Shown here piece by piece: positions 21,291-59,528 of a DNA stretch of 64,000 nt. This DNA comes from Syntrophorhabdaceae bacterium (GTDB lineage Bacteria > Desulfobacterota > Syntrophorhabdia > Syntrophorhabdales > Syntrophorhabdaceae). The DNA lies in the NCBI GenBank assembly GCA_963665295.1, contig OY762209.1:1440001-1504000 (forward strand), given 5' to 3'. The translations under genes and the position numbers were made by a program. The number at the start of each line of letters is the position of its first letter. Position 1 is the first letter of the stretch. The notes beneath the pieces were generated by a model. It was given only the letters and a program-made list of their open reading frames with translations, was not told the DNA's origin and ran no database searches.

Positions 21291-21522
21291 ACGACCCTCC
21301 AACAGTAGTATGGGACATTATAACCCATTTCCGCGAACTTGTCGCCGGTCGGCGTGAAGGTCGGCGTGAAGGTCGGGATTGTGCTTGTGAGTCTTGCGTA
21401 CACTTGGACGGATCGCCGCACGGAACGAAAACGCTATATAGGCCGCTCTGCAAAGGGAGGCGTGCTCTGGCGTATGAATATACGCCGACGCCCAGCCTCC
21501 CTTCACAGCCCAACCTATCTAG

Positions 21523-22655
21523 TGTACTGTCTCACTAATAGCTTTCCAATTACCCTTGGCTATGCTATCATAGTGCATGTGGAATCCAGCCAGTACGCTA
21601 GACATGACGGAAGAGCAGAGAAAGACATTGGAAACATGGGTCAAAGCAAAGAAGACTCCCCAAAGGGTGGTTCTACGCTCCCGCATCTGCCTGCTCGCGG
21701 CAGAAGGGATGTCCCATAACGCCATAGCGAAGAGGCTCAATACCTCCCGCCCTACGGTGATATTGTGGGTAGGCCGCTTCAGAGAACAGGGCCCCTCCGG
21801 TTTGTCGGAGGACGCACCCCATGGGCCGAGTTCAAGGCGCCTTAACCCGGAGATAGTGCGCACCATCGTGGAAGCCACGCTCCATACAACTCCCAAAGAT
21901 GCTACTCAGTGGTCCACCCGCACCATGGCAAAGGAGAAGGGCGTGAGCCATGCCACCGTGCAGCGCATCTGGGATGCCCATGGACTACAGCCCCATCGGG
22001 TAGAAACTTTCAAGCTGTCCAGAGACAAGAAGTTCGTGGAGAAACTGACCGATGTGGTGGGCGTCTATCTCAATCCTCCCGACAAAGCGGTGGTACTCTG
22101 TGTGGATGAGAAAAGCCAGGTGCAGGCCCTGGACCGGACCCAGCCGGGATTACCGATGAAGAAGGGGCGCTGCGGCACGATGACCCACGACTACAAAAGG
22201 AACGGCACTACCTGTCTTTTTGCCGCCCTCAATGTTCTGGAAGGAAAAGTCATAGGCTCCTGCTATCCCCGCCACAGAAATACCGAATTTCTTAAGTTCC
22301 TGCGTACCATAGACCGTCAGGTGCCAAAGGGCCTCGATGTCCATATGATTCTCGACAACTACGGAACTCATACCCACCCCAATGTGAAAGCATGGCTCGA
22401 AAAACACCCCCGTTTCGTTCCCCACTTTACACCCACAAGCTCGTCGTGGCTTAACCTGGTGGAGCGCTGGTTCGGGGAGATCACACGAAAGAGAATTCGT
22501 CGCGGCATCTTCAAAAGCGTTCAGGAACTGGTGACCGCCATCGAAGAATATATTCGCTGCAACAACGAAGACCCCAAACCCTTCGTATGGACCAGGAAGG
22601 CCGAGGAGATACTTGAAAAAGTGAATCGCTGTAAAGGCGTTACTGAGACACTACA
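21523..22655 (+). mobile_element. IS630-family insertion sequence
   Basis: Terminal IRs TGTACTGTCTCACTAA / TTACTGAGACACTACA (14/16); CTAG on both sides (21519-21522, 22656-22659). Confidence 0.93.
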
Positions 22656-22659
22656 CTAG
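21577..22659 (+). CDS. IS630 transposase
   Basis: N-terminal HTH, VDEKSQ, HDYKRNGT, ILDNYGTH, SWLNLVERWF; stop codon lies in the CTAG target. Confidence 0.96.
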   Translation: MWNPASTLDMTEEQRKTLETWVKAKKTPQRVVLRSRICLLAAEGMSHNAIAKRLNTSRPTVILWVGRFREQGPSGLSEDAPHGPSSRRLNPEIVRTIVEATLHTTPKDATQWSTRTMAKEKGVSHATVQRIWDAHGLQPHRVETFKLSRDKKFVEKLTDVVGVYLNPPDKAVVLCVDEKSQVQALDRTQPGLPMKKGRCGTMTHDYKRNGTTCLFAALNVLEGKVIGSCYPRHRNTEFLKFLRTIDRQVPKGLDVHMILDNYGTHTHPNVKAWLEKHPRFVPHFTPTSSSWLNLVERWFGEITRKRIRRGIFKSVQELVTAIEEYIRCNNEDPKPFVWTRKAEEILEKVNRCKGVTETLH

Positions 22660-22982
22660 CGTCTCCGCCCCGTGCGACGATCCACTCGACCCGGCAGCAA
22701 TTAATCAAAAGAGCTAATGATGCCGGGAGATTTGCCCCAGGGGAGAGGCAGGCCTACCGGCGTAGGAACAGAGTGTACAAAGGCCCGGCCCAAAAATAGA
22801 ACGCCCCGGGCGCAGGGGAGTACCTCCCCCCCAACAGGCAGGCTGATATCCCCGCTCCAAAGATATGGAAAGGCATATATAGATTACCCCGCCGCAGGCA
22901 GCGGGGCACGAAACCCCGGGGACACCACCATGGGGCCCGCGGCTTGGGTGCAACCCTTCGCTGATCCAACTGGTCGTTATTT

Positions 22983-23165
22983 CCGGCATCGATTGATTAA
23001 AATAAATAAGATGTGCCGGGTGGAGTAGGTGGGGGCATGGAGGGGAAGTTTCAGATGGGCTGCTCTGTGAAGGGGTGTGGCCTGGAGCCGTACTTAATGT
23101 ACGGAGGAAGGCTCGCCCCTTTGCAGAGGGGTCCATATGGAGCTTTCCCTTTATGCCCCCACCTA
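22983..23165 (+). repeat. Hairpin-family copy B
   Basis: CCGGCATC-(AT-rich)-GATGTGCCGG, then arms AGGTGGGGGCATGGAGGGGAAGTTTCA / TGGAGCTTTCCCTTTATGCCCCCACCT around CCGTAC-TTAAT-GTACGG. Confidence 0.85.
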
Positions 23166-23243
23166 TCCACTAAAACAGCCTTGCACGCCCCACGCAGCAA
23201 TACCAGGTGCTCGCGCTGCCCGGGGAATATCGGGGGGGGGATA

Positions 23244-31585: not shown

Positions 31586-34231
31586 CTACTTCTTAAACTT
31601 CACCGTCACGTTCCGGGCCTTGTTCATGGTGACGCTGCAGGTGGTCCCGGTACAATCGGAGACGGACCAGCTCAAGACGGATGATCCACTGTCCGGTGTC
31701 GCGGTGAGAGTCACCTGGGTGCCGTAGGGTATGGAGGAGGCCTTGCAGTGCCCTTTGGAGCCGGGGGCGCAGTCTATGCCCCACGTGCTGTTCGTCACCG
31801 TGCCCGTGCCCTTGTTCACCGATGAGTTCGTCACCTTGAGGGTCTCGGGGCCTATGAACGTTGCTTTCACCGTCTGGTTCGCAGTTATGGCGACGGTGCA
31901 GGTAGTCCCGGCGCATGACGGTATGGACCAGCCGTTAAAATAGGAAAGAGCACCCGGATTCGCGGTGAGGGTCACGGATGAGCCCTTCGCATATGAGCGG
32001 GAACAGTTGGCGCCGCAGTCTATGGAACCGTCCGAACTTACAATCTCCCCATCCCCGTTATTCTGTTTCGTCTTGCTCACGGTGAGCTTCACCGGGTTCT
32101 GGAGGGCAAAGGTAGCGGCCACCGTCTTCGTCTTGTCCATGGTTACGTTACAGGTGTCGGCAGACGTGGAAGCGCACCCGGACCAGGATTTTAAGATGGA
32201 GCCGGAGGAGGGGGCCGCGGTGAGCGTGACGGTTGTGCTCTGTGCAAACGGGGCGGAGCAGGCATGCCCGCAGTCGATGCCGTCGAGGTCGCTCAAGACC
32301 GTTCCCGTGCCGTTACCGGTTTTGGACACGGCGAGGGCGAACGTCCTCGGCTCCACAATGGATTGACGAATGCCTCCACTTCCTCCCACCGCCACAAAGG
32401 ATCCGGCGCCGTACCCGACGCCTGCGCCGAGAGACGCCGATTTTCTCAGAGTCCACCTCGTTCCGTCGGCGGAGCTAAGGGTTGTGTAGTTACCCACCGC
32501 CACAAAGGTGTTGCCGCCGAAGGCGACACCGCTGTAATATCCTGATGCGGTATAAGTCCAGGTCACCCCGTCCGGAGAACTGAAGACGCCGGAAAAACCG
32601 ACGGCTACGAATAAGCCGTTGCCGTACGTGATTGCAGAGGGCTGGAATAGTCCTGCAACGTTGCTCACTGTCCAGTTCAGCCCATCGGGAGAAGTGAAAG
32701 TTTGACCGGCTCCTATAACCACGAACATGTCATTGCCATAGGCGACCCCCAAGAGCATCGTTGTTGCCCTGGAGTTTCCGACAGTCCATTGTATCCCGTC
32801 AGGAGAGGTAATCAGCGTGCCCTGGGGGCTCACTGCCACAAACCTGTTTTTGCCCCACGCAACCCCCCGTAGCGAACCCGATAACCCTGACGTTCTTCTT
32901 GTCCACCTTGTCTTGTCAGTGGATGTAAAGATTAAGGCATGTTCGTCACTTTCCGACACGCATTCAGAACCCACGGCTACAAAAATGCCGGCGCCGAAAG
33001 CGATGTCCTGGAAGGAAAAATGTCGTCCCAAATCCTTCGTGGTCCAGGTTACCCAATCTGTAGAAGTGACAATTGCTCCCTCTTCGCCTACGGCCACGAA
33101 CATATCGTTGCCGTAGGCGACTCGGGAAAGGTTCTTGCGTGTCCCCGAGGTCCTTCGACGCCACTGTTTTCCATTGGAAGAGGTCAGGATACCGCCACTG
33201 TCGGCCCATATCTCTCCCACCGCTACGAACGTGCCGTTCCCGTAACCTGTGCCGTAGACGTTGCCAAGCATGCTTCCAACGTTGTCCGAAACGTCCGTCC
33301 ATTCTACCCCGTCAGGGGAGGAGGAGGCAATATAGTTCCCAACGGCCACAAAAGTGCCGTTGCCGTAAGTGACCGCATAAAAAGGGTTATGATTATTCGA
33401 ATATGTGAGGGTCCAATCGGAGCCGTCGGGCGAGGCAAAAACAAGACGATTTGTAACGACCAGAAAAATACCGTTGCCGTAGACCACCCCCGCGGCGCAA
33501 TACCCATCGGGGCAATTAACGGTTCCTAAGTCTTCCTGGGTCCATGTCAGACCATCCGAGGAAGTGAAAACCTTGCAGGAGCCGGCATTCGTTCCCGCCG
33601 CAACAAAGGTGTTCCCGCCGTAAGCAATACTCGAAAGGTGGTACCACGGACGCTCCCTTGCCGTCCATGTTATCCCGTCGGGAGAGGTAGCGTACTTATT
33701 CGCAAAAGCTGTAAATCCCACTGCCACGAAGAGTCCGCTGCCGTAGGCAACCCCGGTAAGCCAATCGGATAGACCGGATTCCCTTGGCGTCCATGTCACC
33801 GCGTCCGGGGAAGTTACAATAGTGCCGTCCTCTCCCACCGCCACGAAAGCGCCGTTTCCGTAAGCGACGGCATGCAGGTCCGCAACCATCCCCGAAGTCC
33901 TCTGGGTCCAGGCCACTCCGTCCGGGGAGGTGAGGATGGCGCCGTCCTCTCCCACCGCCACGAAGGTGCTATTGCCATAAGCGACCGCCAAAAGCTTGCC
34001 TCCTGTGGGTAAAGGATTTCTCCACACCCAATTATCGAGAGGATCGAGAGAGGCCGTGCCGTCATCATGGTCATACCGAATTTGGGTTTTTCCCGGCTCG
34101 GTGCTGCTATCGTCGGGTCGCTCGACACTCTTGCCGGCATAGTCCGCCGAATGAGCAACGATACCCGTTGTCATGGAAAACAGGAACAGGGCGAAAAAGA
34201 GTTGCAGGGAGACCTTCATACACGTCGACAT
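31586..34231 (-). CDS. Secreted surface protein: beta-propeller-like repeats plus three Cys-containing InlB-B-like repeats
   Basis: About a dozen VAYGNGxFVAVG...SxDGxxWT repeats; C-terminal GTGTV..GIDCG..C..VTLTA.P...W..C....C.VTM repeats. Confidence 0.88.
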   Translation of the reverse strand: MSTCMKVSLQLFFALFLFSMTTGIVAHSADYAGKSVERPDDSSTEPGKTQIRYDHDDGTASLDPLDNWVWRNPLPTGGKLLAVAYGNSTFVAVGEDGAILTSPDGVAWTQRTSGMVADLHAVAYGNGAFVAVGEDGTIVTSPDAVTWTPRESGLSDWLTGVAYGSGLFVAVGFTAFANKYATSPDGITWTARERPWYHLSSIAYGGNTFVAAGTNAGSCKVFTSSDGLTWTQEDLGTVNCPDGYCAAGVVYGNGIFLVVTNRLVFASPDGSDWTLTYSNNHNPFYAVTYGNGTFVAVGNYIASSSPDGVEWTDVSDNVGSMLGNVYGTGYGNGTFVAVGEIWADSGGILTSSNGKQWRRRTSGTRKNLSRVAYGNDMFVAVGEEGAIVTSTDWVTWTTKDLGRHFSFQDIAFGAGIFVAVGSECVSESDEHALIFTSTDKTRWTRRTSGLSGSLRGVAWGKNRFVAVSPQGTLITSPDGIQWTVGNSRATTMLLGVAYGNDMFVVIGAGQTFTSPDGLNWTVSNVAGLFQPSAITYGNGLFVAVGFSGVFSSPDGVTWTYTASGYYSGVAFGGNTFVAVGNYTTLSSADGTRWTLRKSASLGAGVGYGAGSFVAVGGSGGIRQSIVEPRTFALAVSKTGNGTGTVLSDLDGIDCGHACSAPFAQSTTVTLTAAPSSGSILKSWSGCASTSADTCNVTMDKTKTVAATFALQNPVKLTVSKTKQNNGDGEIVSSDGSIDCGANCSRSYAKGSSVTLTANPGALSYFNGWSIPSCAGTTCTVAITANQTVKATFIGPETLKVTNSSVNKGTGTVTNSTWGIDCAPGSKGHCKASSIPYGTQVTLTATPDSGSSVLSWSVSDCTGTTCSVTMNKARNVTVKFKK

Positions 34232-37232: not shown

Positions 37233-40200
37233 ATGAGAAAAAAGATAGTCTTGAGCCTCGCCTGTTATATGTTCGCCATTCTTCTTGCCTGTGCCTCTTT
37301 TGCAGGCGCCACCATCCTCGTGGTCTCGCCCCACCCGGATGACGACCTGCTTGCCGCCTCGGGTGTGACCCGCCAGGCAGTGGAAAAGGGGGAGCGGGTA
37401 ATCGTGGTTTACGTGACCAACGGCGACATAAATGGTGCTCAGACCGGCTACCAGAGGCAGGCGGAAGCGGTGCAGGGGCAGGCATTCCTGTCGAACGCTG
37501 AGGACAACCTCATTTTTCTCGGGTATCCGGACGCGTATCTTGCGACCCTGTATTCGAACTATCCGGGAAAGAAAGACCAGTTCAAGACACCCCTCGGACA
37601 GTCGGTCACTTACGGCAGCCGGGGTTTGGGCCGTTCGGACTATCACTTTTACAAGTTCGGTTCCCGGGCCGCTTACAACCTGTACAACATGGTCATGGAC
37701 CTGACCCGGATCATCACGGATTACACACCCGACCACATAATCGCACCGAGCCAATTCGATCAGCATGCGGACCATTCCACCACCGCCGCGTTGGTGGGGC
37801 TCGCGGTGACGGCCGCACGGGGGAAGTTGAAGTCTTACTCCCCCACGGTGCACAAGTATGGGATTCACTGGGACAACTGGCCGGAGCCGATGGACCCCGC
37901 GCGCTACTTTACCGAACCCCCGGGACTTGTGAATACCCCGCTCCTCTGGAGCGCGAGGGAGAGTATCGATGTTCCTTCCGCCATGCAGTCCCTCAACCCC
38001 CAGGAAAACTCCAAGTACGTCGCAATCTCCGCCCATGCGACCCAGGGCGGGGCTTCGGGGTGGCTCGGCCGCTTCGTGCACAAGGATGAGGTCTTCTGGA
38101 TCGACACCACCCTGGGAGGCACGAATCATGCGCCCGTAGTGAATGCGGGCCCGGACCAGACAGTGAAACAGGGGGTCCAGGTCACCCTTGACGGCTCGGG
38201 AAGCAAGGACCCCGAAGGTAATACGGTCAAATTTATGTGGACTCAGATTGCGGGCGCCACGGTGAACCTATCGGACCCGACTGCGGCAAAACCCGTATTT
38301 TCCACCCCTACCGGCCTTGTGGCGGGCGATCGGCTGGTCTTCCAATTGGTCGCGAGCGACGGTCAGGCCCAGAGCCTCCGTGATCTCGTGACCGTGGTGG
38401 TGCAGCCCCCCGCGTGTAACAATATCGCCCCCAAAGCCACGGTCATGGCGTCATCGGAAACCCCGGGGACCGGCCAGACCGCGGTGAAAGCCGTGGACGG
38501 CGTGATAGACGGGTATCCCGGAGACTATACCCGGGAGTGGGCTACGGCAGGCCAGCGGAGCGGCGCATGGATCAACCTTACATGGGACGGCCCGTACACG
38601 GTGAACCGGGTAATCCTTTATGACAGGCCGGGTTTGAACGACCAGATTATCGCAGGGACCCTTACCTTCAGCGACGGCACCACCCTCGCGGTGGGGCCTC
38701 TCAACAACGCGGGGTCGGCAACGGATTACATATTCTCCGCAAAGACGATTACGAGTCTCACCCTCACCGTCAATCAGGTGGGAGGCTACACTCTCAACAC
38801 GGGTCTCGCGGAGATAGAGGTATGCGGCCTTGCCCCCGTCATATCAGGGGGGACGGCGTCCAACCGCGCCCCTCAGACGAATGCGGGGTCGGACCAGACA
38901 GTGAGCCAGGGCGCCATAGTCACCCTCGACGGTTCGGGGAGCAAGGACCCCGACGGCAACCCCATCACCTTCGCATGGAAGCAGATCTCGGGCACCACAG
39001 TGCAGCTGTCGAACCCCGCAGCGGTGAACCCCACGTTTACCGCCCCCGCCGGTTCCTCCCTGGACGAGAAACTGGTCTTCGAACTCGTGGCGGACGACGG
39101 GCAGCTCAGGAGCGCCGTGGATTCGGTAACGGTCACTGTGCAGCCTCCGGCAGCGGAATGTTCGAACATCGCAGGCCTTGCAAAGATAATCGCCTCCTCC
39201 GAGTCCCCCGAAGCAGGCCAGGTAGCGCCCAAGGTGGCGGACGGGGTGGTTGACGGGTGGCCCGGAGACTATACCCGCGAGTGGGCCAGTTACGGCCAGG
39301 GGAACGGCGCATGGCTCAACCTGACGTGGAGCGGTGTGTACGCGGTGAACCGGGTGATCCTCTATGACAGGCCGAACCTCGACGACCAGATCCTGGCGGG
39401 CACCATGAGTTTCAGCGACGGCACCAGCGTGGCCGTGGGCCCCCTCAACAACGCAGGGTCTGCCGTGGAATACCGCTTTTCCGATAAATACATTACGAGC
39501 CTTACCCTTGCGGTGAGTCAGGTGAGCGCCGCTACGTTAAACATAGGCCTTGCGGAGATAGAGGTCTGCGGGGTTCAGAATACAGGCGTCGATTATCCTC
39601 CCACGGCGAATGCGGGCTCGGACCAGTCAGTGAAACAGGGGACCCTCGTCACCCTCGACGCCTCGGGGAGCAGGGATCCTGAAGGCAAAGCCCTTTCCTA
39701 CGCCTGGACCCAGACCGGGGGCGCCGCGGTCCAATTGTCGAACCCTACCGCAATGAACCCCACTTTTACCGCTCCTTCGGACCTTCCCCAGGGCGACCGC
39801 CTCACCTTTCAACTGGTGGTGAACGACGGACAACTTCAGAGCGCCGCAGATTCGGCGACGGTGACCGTGGAGGCGACACCGACATGCTCGAACATCACCC
39901 CCCTTGCCATGGTGATGGCCTCCTCGGAAACGCCCGAGTACGGCCAGACCGCGGTCAAAGCGATCGACCTCGTCGTGGACGGCAGCCCGTACGATTATAC
40001 CCGCGAGTGGGTTACGGCGGGACAGGGCGCGGGCGCATGGATCTTCCTGATGTGGAACAAACCCTATAAGGTGAGCCGGGTGACCCTCTATGACAGGCTC
40101 AACACGAACGACCAGATCCTTGGAGGGGTGATAAACTTCAGCGACGGCACGAGCATCCAGGTCGGCCCCCTGAACAACAACGGGGAAGCGACGGAGTACG

Positions 40201-50611: not shown

Positions 50612-50914
50612 ATGGGAAGAATGTGGGGGTTGGAAAGCGGAGGTGTTGTAGGCGGCAAGGCCATGGAGGATATGCTCATAGAGGTATTCGGCTGCGTTTC
50701 CCTGAACAGCAGGGTAATAAGGCTCGAGCCGGGCAGGGACAAGCTATGGTTCAGAACCGACGCCGCGGTCAGTGAACACGTTATGGAGGATATGCTCATA
50801 GAGGTATTCGGCTGCGTTTCGCTGAACAACAGGGTAATAAGGCTCGAATCAGGCAGGGACAAGCTGCGGCGCCCGAGCGGACTCAGGGCGGACGCGGTAG
50901 CCTGTACCGCATGA
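50612..50914 (+). CDS. Small protein with a 40-aa-period internal repeat
   Basis: GGGAGG RBS; MEDMLIEVFGCVSLNxRVIRLExGRDKL twice; downstream of the sigma54 promoter. Confidence 0.6.
   Translation: MGRMWGLESGGVVGGKAMEDMLIEVFGCVSLNSRVIRLEPGRDKLWFRTDAAVSEHVMEDMLIEVFGCVSLNNRVIRLESGRDKLRRPSGLRADAVACTA
50663..50865 (+). repeat. 83-bp direct repeat with 120-bp period
   Basis: 50663-50745 vs 50783-50865, five mismatches by hand count. Confidence 0.9.
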
Positions 50915-57719: not shown

Positions 57720-58223
57720 ATGAAAGGCAGACTGCCGGTATACAGGGATTCTTTCTTTTGCGGAACGGAACGGCCCGACGGGCTTCAGCTCACCATGACT
57801 TACGAGGACCACCTCGTGCTGTGCGACCTCTTCGTGGACAACAGGTTCGAAGGGTACACGAACGTGGCCCACGGCGGCCTCATCTTCGGGATTCTCGATG
57901 TGATGATCTGGTACGTAATCTTTATGGAGACGAAGAAGATATGCATGACCCGGAAGACGGTGTCGGAGTTCCTGAAACCCGTCATGTGCAATAGCCATTA
58001 CAGGGCCAAGGCGCAGTTCCTCTGCATTGACGACAGGGACGTGCTTTCCGCCGCGTGGGTCGAAGACGAAAACGGGGCGGTCTGCACTAAAGTGGACGCC
58101 GTCTTCAGGGAGGCGAAAGACCTGCCTGTCGAGTCCTTTATCAACCGGTTCGACTTCAGCATTACCACGCCGGAGATCAAGGCCTTTTTCCTCTCCCTCC
58201 TTGAAGGCGAGCAGCGATCATAG
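57720..58223 (+). CDS. PaaI-family (hotdog-fold) thioesterase
   Basis: FEGYTNVAHGGLIFGILD, FLKPV. Confidence 0.85.
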   Translation: MKGRLPVYRDSFFCGTERPDGLQLTMTYEDHLVLCDLFVDNRFEGYTNVAHGGLIFGILDVMIWYVIFMETKKICMTRKTVSEFLKPVMCNSHYRAKAQFLCIDDRDVLSAAWVEDENGAVCTKVDAVFREAKDLPVESFINRFDFSITTPEIKAFFLSLLEGEQRS

Positions 58224-58298
58224 ACCTGTTGAAGCAGCGATAGAAAACGGTTGGCGGGAGAGCTTAAGTTGGTTGGAGCGGGCGATAGTTGGTAAAGT

Positions 58299-58476
58299 GG
58301 CCGGCCGCATGAACGAAAACTCGATATGCACCGCTCTGCAAAGGGGCGTGGGCTCTGCCGTACCTGAGTACGGCGACGCCCATCACCCCTTCACAGCCCG
58401 GCACATCTCGAGCTTCCGCCCATGCCGCCGTCCGTTCCACCGGCATCAATTGAATTTTGAAAACCAGGGATGCCGG
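58299..58476 (-). repeat. Hairpin-family copy C
   Basis: Perfect CCGGCATC-N21-GATGCCGG (58440-58476); minus-strand hairpin around GCCGTAC-TCAG-GTACGGC. Confidence 0.88.
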
Positions 58477-58598
58477 AAAATTGGGCCCCGTGATTCACGA
58501 TTACACCGCACCTTCCGGTTTTCCTCATTCCAATCCATGTCAATAGTTGTCTGTATCTTCGTCGTATTGCCGCACGGTTGCTACCCGGTCTTATTTTC

Positions 58599-58776
58599 CC
58601 GGCATCCTTAATCAATAATTGAATTACGCCGGGTGGAACAGGTGGCGGCACGGGGCGGATGCTTCAGGTTCGCTGGGCTGTGAAGGGGTGATGGGCGTCG
58701 CCGTACTTGCGTACGGCAGAGCCCACGCCCCTTTGCAGAGCGGCGGAGATGGAGCATTCGTTCTGTGCCGCCACCT
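58599..58776 (+). repeat. Hairpin-family copy D
   Basis: CCGGCATC-(AT-rich)-ACGCCGG, then arms AGGTGGCGGCACGGGGCGGATGCTTCA / TGGAGCATTCGTTCTGTGCCGCCACCT around GCCGTAC-TTGC-GTACGGC. Confidence 0.88.
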
Positions 58777-58842
58777 ACATACAGTATCGTCGATCACTCC
58801 CCCACTTTCCGAACCGCCTATCTTCGCTGCGCGCCCTTGCCA

Positions 58843-58871
58843 TTGACAGACGGGCTCCAACTTGTTACATT
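58843..58871 (+). promoter_or_regulatory. sigma70 promoter, probably giving a leaderless mRNA
   Basis: TTGACA-N17-TACATT with extended TG; ATG begins 7 nt after the -10 box; no SD. Confidence 0.65.
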
Positions 58872-58877
58872 TGGGCC

Positions 58878-59528
58878 ATGCCCGTCCATCACCATTTGCC
58901 CAAAGAAGGGATGATATACCAGAGGGAGCAGTACGCCAAGGGCGGCGCGGGAAGGCGCTACTGGGACTACAGGGACAACATTGTATTCTCCTACATTCTC
59001 CCCCGCCACAAGAGCATCGTGGACATAGGGTGCGGAGAGGGCATCGCCCTTGAAAAACTGACCGGGTTATTTCCCGGGAACGAGGTGGTGGGTGTGGACC
59101 TCGAACTGGAGAATATCGAGATCTGCCGGGAGCACGGGCTGACCGCCGTTTATTCGAATGTCTACGAACTTGCCCTGCCCACGGCTCGCTTTGACGTGGC
59201 CATCTGCATCGACGTCCTCGAGCACCTCACAAGACCCGAAGACGGGGTGAAGGAGCTTTACAGGATTTTGAGGCCCGGCGGCCGCCTCATAATCGTCATA
59301 CCCAACGACAGGAACTTCTTTCTGTCCCGTCTCGCCCTGGGGATGATAAAAGAGGCTTTCTACGACGCGGGTCACGAGAGACAGTGGAGACCCCGGGAAG
59401 TGGCGGGCCTGCTGGAAAGAACGGGGTTCGGGATCGCGGCGGGAAGGAGCATCCCCTTCCTTTTGTGGCATACGAGCCTTCACCACGTGATCGTGGCGGA
59501 AAAAAGGTCCGGAGGGGAGAAAGGATGA
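58878..59528 (+). CDS. Class I SAM-dependent methyltransferase
   Basis: VDIGCGEG, FDV..CIDVLEHL, RILRPGG. Confidence 0.92.
   Translation: MPVHHHLPKEGMIYQREQYAKGGAGRRYWDYRDNIVFSYILPRHKSIVDIGCGEGIALEKLTGLFPGNEVVGVDLELENIEICREHGLTAVYSNVYELALPTARFDVAICIDVLEHLTRPEDGVKELYRILRPGGRLIIVIPNDRNFFLSRLALGMIKEAFYDAGHERQWRPREVAGLLERTGFGIAAGRSIPFLLWHTSLHHVIVAEKRSGGEKG

Follow-up and report, generated by a model that had tools for sequence, protein, structure and literature searches.

The window analysed here is a stretch of 64,000 nucleotides from a Syntrophorhabdaceae bacterium (contig OY762209.1), in which two long hairpins lie back to back between a gene for a putative thioesterase and a methyltransferase gene. 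On the plus strand, the order of this doublet (C/D) is rod C, small inverted repeat, 121-bp spacer, small inverted repeat, and rod D. The features referred to below, including those of a sister doublet (A/B), are as follows:

57720 to 58223, plus strand: hotdog-fold thioesterase gene behind rlmN (weak TIGR00369 match)
58242 to 58291, minus strand: C/A-rich 3' tail of copy C (C+A = 66%)
58299 to 58433, minus strand: rod C, an imperfect hairpin of ∼140 nt with G-T/G-U pairs and tandem G·A loops, its base partly decayed
58440 to 58476, minus strand: P1 of copy C, a small 5' hairpin whose loop is AT-rich
58477 to 58597, unstranded: spacer of 121 bp, containing both leaders
58598 to 58633, plus strand: small 5' hairpin (P1) of copy D
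58640 to 58776, plus strand: rod D, a hairpin of ∼140 nt whose outer parts are 68-70% identical to those of C
58784 to 58833, plus strand: 3' tail of copy D (C+A = 56%, the weakest among 27 copies)
58843 to 58871, plus strand: sigma-70-type promoter of the methyltransferase gene, host sequence
58878 to 59528, plus strand: SAM methyltransferase gene
21402 to 23171: sister doublet A/B, spacer about 255 bp, rod A split by a gene
21604 to 22659: DDE_3 transposase gene inside rod A, which we take to be IS630-like

The thioesterase assignment is weak (TIGR00369, 20 bits, below the cut-off). The layout that an earlier note had described for positions 58299 to 58776 is exact, and it recurs in A/B, whose spacer is unlike that of C/D except at the spacer ends. 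Both rods fold far beyond shuffled sequences, and each prefers one strand. Rod C reaches −104.2 kcal/mol on the minus strand (z −11.6) versus −72 on the opposite strand, and rod D reaches −113 kcal/mol on the plus strand (z −14.5) versus −79, a deficit of 32-34 kcal/mol for the opposite strands. None of 200 shuffled sequences folded as well as C or D on either strand, and the strand preference is kept under DNA parameters (C, −53.5 vs −37.8; D, −53.7 vs −42.3). Copy C is more decayed than D, with broken pairs at its base. When Rfam 15 was searched, C/D matched no family, giving only generic miRNA-hairpin matches far below threshold, and eight related loci were likewise without a family. Elsewhere in the window lie a direct repeat of 83 nt (50663-50865, 94% identity, spacing 120 bp), three repeated units of ∼740 bp each (38140-40190), and an array of ∼117-bp repeats (32385-33989) that is probably inside a repeat-protein gene.

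The earlier note had pointed to the thioesterase-methyltransferase intergenic region of relatives as a place where an empty site might be found, and a genome of the same genus (G001) supplies one. The gene order is kept in G001, and the distance from the stop codon to the conserved promoter is 25 bp there versus 619 bp here. Because the promoter at 58843 to 58871 is conserved at this empty site, it lies outside the insert. The direction of change is likely to have been an insertion of C/D in the present lineage, at a junction whose mapping is prevented by divergence. No rod was found at the thioesterase loci of relatives in 13 fetched stretches, one of which ends with its contig 78 bp past the gene. 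Since the promoter sits behind D, we rejected a role of D in 5' regulation of the methyltransferase gene. The earlier note had seen no target-site duplication, and we also found none beyond chance at C/D. The doublet occurs once in the genome; contigs of four sequencing runs, which drop rare variants, contained no empty or rearranged form of it, and an exact-pattern scan of genomes of the species, with a pattern that was too strict, matched three contigs of one MAG only. Reciprocal sites were observed in one operon: a rod of genome G003 lies between the RACo and cooC genes (L035, 1438-1811), and the same gap in the present genome is 11 bp (L015, 2089-2100), with a doublet behind cooC instead.

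The genome (G000) is one contig of 5.51 Mb, in which profile and covariance searches identified 27 copies of the family, each ∼195 nt long, intergenic, and non-coding. The unit consists of a leader, the small hairpin P1, a rod of fixed length, and an unstructured tail; most aligned full-length rods are 145-149 nt, and the stretch 5' of the rod is 24 to 50 nt. A structure alignment of 28 copies (25 from G000 and 3 from G003, omitting the split copy A and an insertion-bearing copy at 4985 kb) has 97.1% paired cells, compared with 83.1% when shuffled and 40-49% when slid, the slid control being lenient since the consensus structure was derived from the same alignment. In this alignment, 33 of 60 pairs have changed on both sides, and G-T pairs number 218 versus 13 for A-C. 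Shape rather than sequence is conserved in the rods, and the one-strand fold of the unit is under selection.

The C/A-rich 3' tail is present at all 27 copies (70% C+A versus 51% for the intergenic background), each of them exceeding 50% C+A, in both replichore orientations. In other genomes, the tails are A-rich (G007 and its kin) or without such skew (type 1 of G040). Ten further loci are rod-less scars that keep P1, among them those at 5229338, 5187967, 1621383, 5420413, 275330, 4918199, 4897160, 4892871, and 1245212 of the G000 chromosome; at 5229338, the deletion joint lies at a short shared word.

Several other arrangements were observed at individual copies. Three identical 170-bp tandem units, each ending just past the small hairpin, precede a full copy at 617073-617789 (L004, 3074-3790), as read from the genome assembly only. 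At 970055 and 972155 (L006), ∼85 bp of leader plus P1 are directly repeated around an XhoI-type restriction-modification pair; no excised form of this cassette was found in the contigs of the four runs, in which rare variants are dropped. By raw count, about 9 of the 17 singlets have defence or mobile genes on their P1 side. Insertions of 60-80 nt occur at or near the rod apex in several copies (L069, 2798-3068; G000, 4985853-4986120; L033, 341-550), and a CRISPR spacer near 1162364 shares about 16 nt with the start of P1 (E 0.7, chance being probable).

The copies are oriented with respect to replication. By GC skew, G000 replicates from an origin near 1.089 Mb to a terminus near 3.906 Mb, with dnaA at 1.073 Mb, and 16 of 17 singlets have their well-folding strand as the template for leading-strand synthesis (p 2.7e-4). 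The same polarity is found in 8 of 10 scars (p 0.11), and none of the 22 loci is more than 1.81 Mb away from the origin (post hoc p 1e-4). In G298, a genome of another family, 31 of 37 copies on four contigs have the same polarity (p 4e-5, leaving out 8 copies on unsampled contigs and with the strand inferred from 20 windows), and it flips where the skew flips. Polarity was not significant in G040 (16/29), G189 (9/24), G251 (9/18), G185 (7/10), or Geobacter metallireducens (15/24, counted from an origin position that we assumed); in three of these five genomes, the origin was taken from dnaA alone.

These features bear on the possibility that the rods are structured non-coding RNAs or mRNA elements with a host function, C and D being two RNAs that run outward from the spacer. 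G-U pairs are numerous, the loops include tandem G·A, the length is fixed, and the C/A-rich 3' tail is unstructured, all of which resembles RNA design; relatives in G. metallireducens were named predicted short RNAs (PMC2700814, in the accessible part of that paper), and ERIC-type repeats influence mRNA decay (PMC3184786, likewise in part). We nevertheless regard an RNA function as unlikely. The earlier note's suggestion of divergently transcribed RNAs finds no support in the 121-bp spacer, in which no sigma-70 site or terminator was found; none was found around C/D either, and the methyltransferase gene has its own promoter. Orientation tracks replication rather than neighbouring genes (about 12 of the 17 singlets precede a gene on the same strand and 5 face a gene end), distant relatives lie inside operons both sense and antisense, the C/D site is empty in the congener, and an Rfam family is absent.

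Ten of the 27 copies form five divergent pairs (near 308 kb, A/B, C/D, 1802 kb, and 4930 kb). The other 17 are singlets, whose rods fold as well as the paired ones. All five close pairs are divergent. When 27 copies are placed in 1500 intergenic slots, the chance of at least three divergent pairs is P 1.5e-5, where three is the number of independent pair types and placement is assumed to be uniform; hot spots would raise this value. Pairing in G000 is non-random.

The A/B doublet occurs at three loci with 93-99% identity, unrelated flanks, and differing spacer middles. The similarity breaks off no more than about 10 nt from the 3' end of each rod, apart from two left ends that match for a further 33 nt, and subfamily boundaries of singlets fade across 10-80 nt. 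The whole of A/B was copied as a unit. What is now a singlet at 2251 kb is the decayed form of an A/B doublet, and it is one of three singlets with reverse P1 remnants in front of them.

C and D are 95% identical over 62 columns of the inner stem and 67-70% elsewhere (outer stems and small hairpins), and each is the other's best match overall (77%); taken by region, the mutual best match is seen in the inner stem only. The inner stems at 4930 kb likewise pick each other as best match (88%), unlike those of A and B (61%; A and B are 58% identical overall). Local gene conversion between the inner stems of partners would be the simplest reading of this pattern. The likeness of C and D could also be taken to mean that pairs arise by local inverted duplication, or by chance double insertion in a junk hot spot, and are meaningless in themselves. 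C paired with D is much more stable than the two rods folded separately (DNA, −171 versus −114 to −121 kcal/mol), and IS elements accumulate at these intergenic spots. This account seems highly improbable to us: the outer stems and small hairpins of C and D differ and yet each still pairs with itself, the A/B partners are only 58% alike, pairs in G040 join two subfamilies, and the close pairs in G000 are all divergent (chance about 1e-5 under uniform placement, higher with hot spots). Tail similarity between C and D, which would have pointed to an inverted duplication, was matched by 57 of 1000 shuffles and was set aside.

Relatives of the family were found well beyond G000. Model R1 matches 42 of 96 genomes of the order, patchily, and the rod-only model R2 matches 36 of 151 genomes of the phylum. 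Model R3, built solely from distant R2 matches, matches 66 of 151 phylum genomes, with G007, G020, and G005 at E 1e-11 to 1e-14. R3 scores B, C, and D in register and on the correct strands, weakly (E 1e-4, 0.06, and 0.22), and its genome-wide run missed G000; the link of the G000 rods to the distant rods is transitive. Distant copies lie between co-transcribed genes in either orientation.

Divergent pairs are also found elsewhere. Of 10 type-2 rods within a 400-kb portion of G040, 5 are followed directly by a type-1 copy, or by what is left of one, in reverse orientation. One pair at L033 is 130 bp apart, another at L083 is split by an IS110 gene, and R1012/R1013 of G. metallireducens have the same divergent geometry with unlike copies (PMC2700814 Fig. 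S1). Among the matches listed for 15 other genomes (G029, G073, G089, G090, G001, G003, G007, G020, G091, G170, G231, G185, G189, G251, and G298; for G001, G003, G007, G020, and G091, 150 of 291 matches were listed), no divergent pair closer than 500 bp was present. Pairs are undercounted in other genomes because most of the assemblies are fragmented and short-read contigs are interrupted at C/D. Singlets predominate nearly everywhere, and the basic unit is likely to be the single rod.

These data partly support the earlier note's proposal that the back-to-back pair may be the functional or mobile unit. Non-random pairing, the A/B copies at three loci, the empty site, and pairs in other genomes favour a unit that can move as a pair; the pair as the unit of the family is not borne out, with 17 of 27 copies being singlets that fold equally well and no divergent pair closer than 500 bp being among the matches listed for the 15 other genomes. 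The same note had held that the pairing would be coincidental if copies elsewhere were randomly oriented singlets. Singlets are indeed the majority, and they are oriented by replication, not randomly.

The ends of the units were compared with those of miniature inverted-repeat elements (MITEs). At all 22 units in G000, no terminal inverted repeat and no target-site duplication was found beyond chance (best p 8/200 among 44 tests), and the lack of both counts against a MITE reading. In G298, a related core is bounded by terminal repeats, and these elements are young MITEs; of 11 copies shown, 3 have YTAR at both ends and 2 have identical 4-bp repeats. Coreless elements in G298, about 97 and 340 bp long, have the same ends as the rod-bearing MITEs (L212, L221, and L230). 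Other terminal repeats surround P1 plus rod in G007 (4/14), G073 (1/1), and G003 (2/3). No transposase was found between G298 ends, where one 1.8-kb interval that was read fully carried a different gene and five regions were mapped for ends only. The G298 end motif is nearly absent from G000. Relics of it in G000 tails were considered and rejected (two motifs in 4/27 and 9/27 copies versus backgrounds of 5% and 11%, and a third in 1/27), the motifs having been chosen after inspection and hence discounted. The description "MITE-like" in the earlier note holds for a short, non-coding, multicopy repeat with an empty site, and it does not extend to terminal repeats or target duplication in G000. 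A plain MITE needs no covarying interior, fixed length, or C/A tail, which implies that something reads the fold.

In a search for the mobiliser, no recurrent neighbour protein family was seen among 87, 94, and 38 scanned proteins, and no match to a Y2 transposase (PF04986; IS91/ISCR) was found in G000, this family being present in 14 of 96 genomes of the order. The IS elements that interrupt rods (DDE_3 here; in G040, DUF772-type and DDE_Tnp_1_assoc-type) inserted into the repeat and are not its parents. An integron origin was rejected, as copies are dispersed and the single adjacent intact recombinase scores 98.7 against a cut-off of 265. RAYT-like genes occur in 70 of the 96 order genomes. 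G000 has four such Y1 genes encoding about 320 aa (at 825764, 849040, 860537, and 1816850), three of which share nearly the same ∼390-bp upstream sequence.

An alternative reading is that the rods are REPIN-like ssDNA substrates of a Y1 (RAYT-like) HUH transposase, a gene-bracketing divergent pair being the autonomous form and C/D its emptied derivative. ssDNA chemistry fits one-strand folding and fork polarity. In G040 (L122, 9086-11822), a RAYT-like gene (85 bits, above the cut-off) and a HAD-like gene lie between two divergent rods, and this pair of rods is a candidate autonomous or cargo-carrying form. RAYT-like genes also adjoin rods in G029 (twice), G091, and G103, two broken Y1-type genes lie near G000 copies, and a clear rod is present at 2 of 20 fetched RAYT loci, one of which was picked for its known adjacency. 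Even so, we hold this route to be rather doubtful. The rod-adjacent RAYT-like genes bear their own terminal repeats and look like separate insertions. RAYT-like genes without an R1 match are found in 17 of 20 g7 and 7 of 7 g11 genomes, a distribution that does not track the rods; G020 has many rods and no RAYT-like gene at E 1e-12, and the four intact Y1 genes in G000 are not flanked by rods. In addition, ssDNA transposition is expected to use the lagging-strand template as the active strand (IS608; PMC3971601, from the accessible text), the opposite of what we observed. The term "REPIN-like doublet" used in the earlier note is apt for the inverted arrangement but not for the proportions, as 10 of 27 copies are paired and doublets do not outnumber singlets.

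The reading that we prefer is a MITE-derived repeat based on the single rod, from which divergent doublets arise secondarily as composite elements whose ends point outward; we give it about an even chance of being right. A second copy would land head-to-head within the leader of a first, and the two rod 3' ends, now facing outward, would become the ends of a small composite element able to carry the intervening DNA. Partners would swap inner stems through gene conversion, and doublets would decay back into singlets and rod-less scars. Insertion or survival would be tied to the replication fork, such that the well-folding strand ends on the leading-strand template. Against fork-tied insertion is the little orientation bias of the IS5 and IS1182 families in Proteobacteria (PMC3971601, in its accessible part). 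The mobiliser would likely be a DDE transposase acting in trans. A broader version, which we consider very unlikely, would have the rod as a phylum-wide folded ssDNA handle, read by shape by a fork-associated host factor or an unrecognised transposase and giving its carriers fork-directed, strand-specific insertion; back-to-back handles would then be a miniature composite transposon that spreads defence genes, and ERIC/RPE-type repeats would be distant members.

Intergenic repeats with long hairpins have gone for decades without a demonstrated mobiliser or a reason for their conserved interior fold. Several entry points for experiments come with the present family: its core is conserved while the ends are interchangeable, G298 has young copies with target duplications, one doublet was copied whole, the C/D site is empty in a congener, polarity is seen in two distant genomes, and a candidate Y1 gene lies within a pair. 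If doublets carry cargo, they would be a small route for defence-gene traffic in anaerobes; otherwise, there is nothing unusual about C/D as one insertion of a common repeat. The orientation of singlets by replication and the C/A-rich tail on all 27 copies are new. In the literature, of which few subscription papers were covered, we found nothing on doublets, polarity, or tail of these rods. Among the matches listed in a motif search of the literature, only the shortest motif was met, and no entry had two motifs.

The rod core itself was probably already known. Aklujkar et al. catalogued it in 2009 as Gmet_R1001-R1024, a 24-copy family of predicted short RNAs in G. metallireducens (PMC2700814; this and the other papers compared here are cited from their accessible portions). 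That family, too, is an intergenic, multicopy rod; its apical palindrome and flanking loop motifs match those of the present rods on the opposite strand, as compared by eye only, and it has one divergent pair of unlike copies, 40 bp apart (PMC2700814). It differs in that ∼113 nt are aligned, and in those portions of the paper no small 5' hairpin, tail, doublet, polarity, or mobility is described (PMC2700814). Chunjie, a MITE of Geobacter uraniireducens from the same broad bacterial group, is similar in size (178-235 bp), very stable fold, and insertion in an operon, a likeness by description only, and it differs in having its own 21-bp terminal repeats and 9-bp duplications. The accessible part of PMC3733652 names no Geobacter, Syntroph-, or Desulfo- organism.

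REPINs share with the present family inverted doublets, G-T-tolerant single-strand folding, and decay from doublet to singlet (Bertels and Rainey 2011, PMC3116915). The halves here are whole 140-nt rods rather than short REP sequences, and singlets are the majority and equally intact. A GTAG-type unpaired 5' tag is lacking; a GTRG-like word starts many rods, but it is paired, and it is absent from D. In sedentary integrons, too, the leading-strand template carries the better-folding strand of attC (Loot et al. 2017, PMC5371416). The rods differ from attC sites in being dispersed and in having inverted pairs, and no integron integrase was found beside the copies.

The Escherichia coli aceF-lpd element, which we take to be an ERIC, was matched neither by R2 nor by the sequence profile, and R3 placed 10.4 bits at the right position (E 0.67); the whole K-12 chromosome gave 0 matches under strict filters. 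The rods may also resemble Rickettsia palindromic elements. ERIC/IRU, RPE, YPAL, and bcr1 are, like the rods, non-autonomous long stem-loops of 100-200 nt with compensatory changes, intergenic, present in tens per genome, and mostly without a demonstrated cognate transposase (PMC3184786, PMC10969869, PMC2229807). By comparison, the G000 rods are without TA ends or terminal repeats and have an extra 5' hairpin, a C/A tail, and doublets copied as units. The family is likely ERIC-like in kind, a non-autonomous mobile element descended from MITEs.
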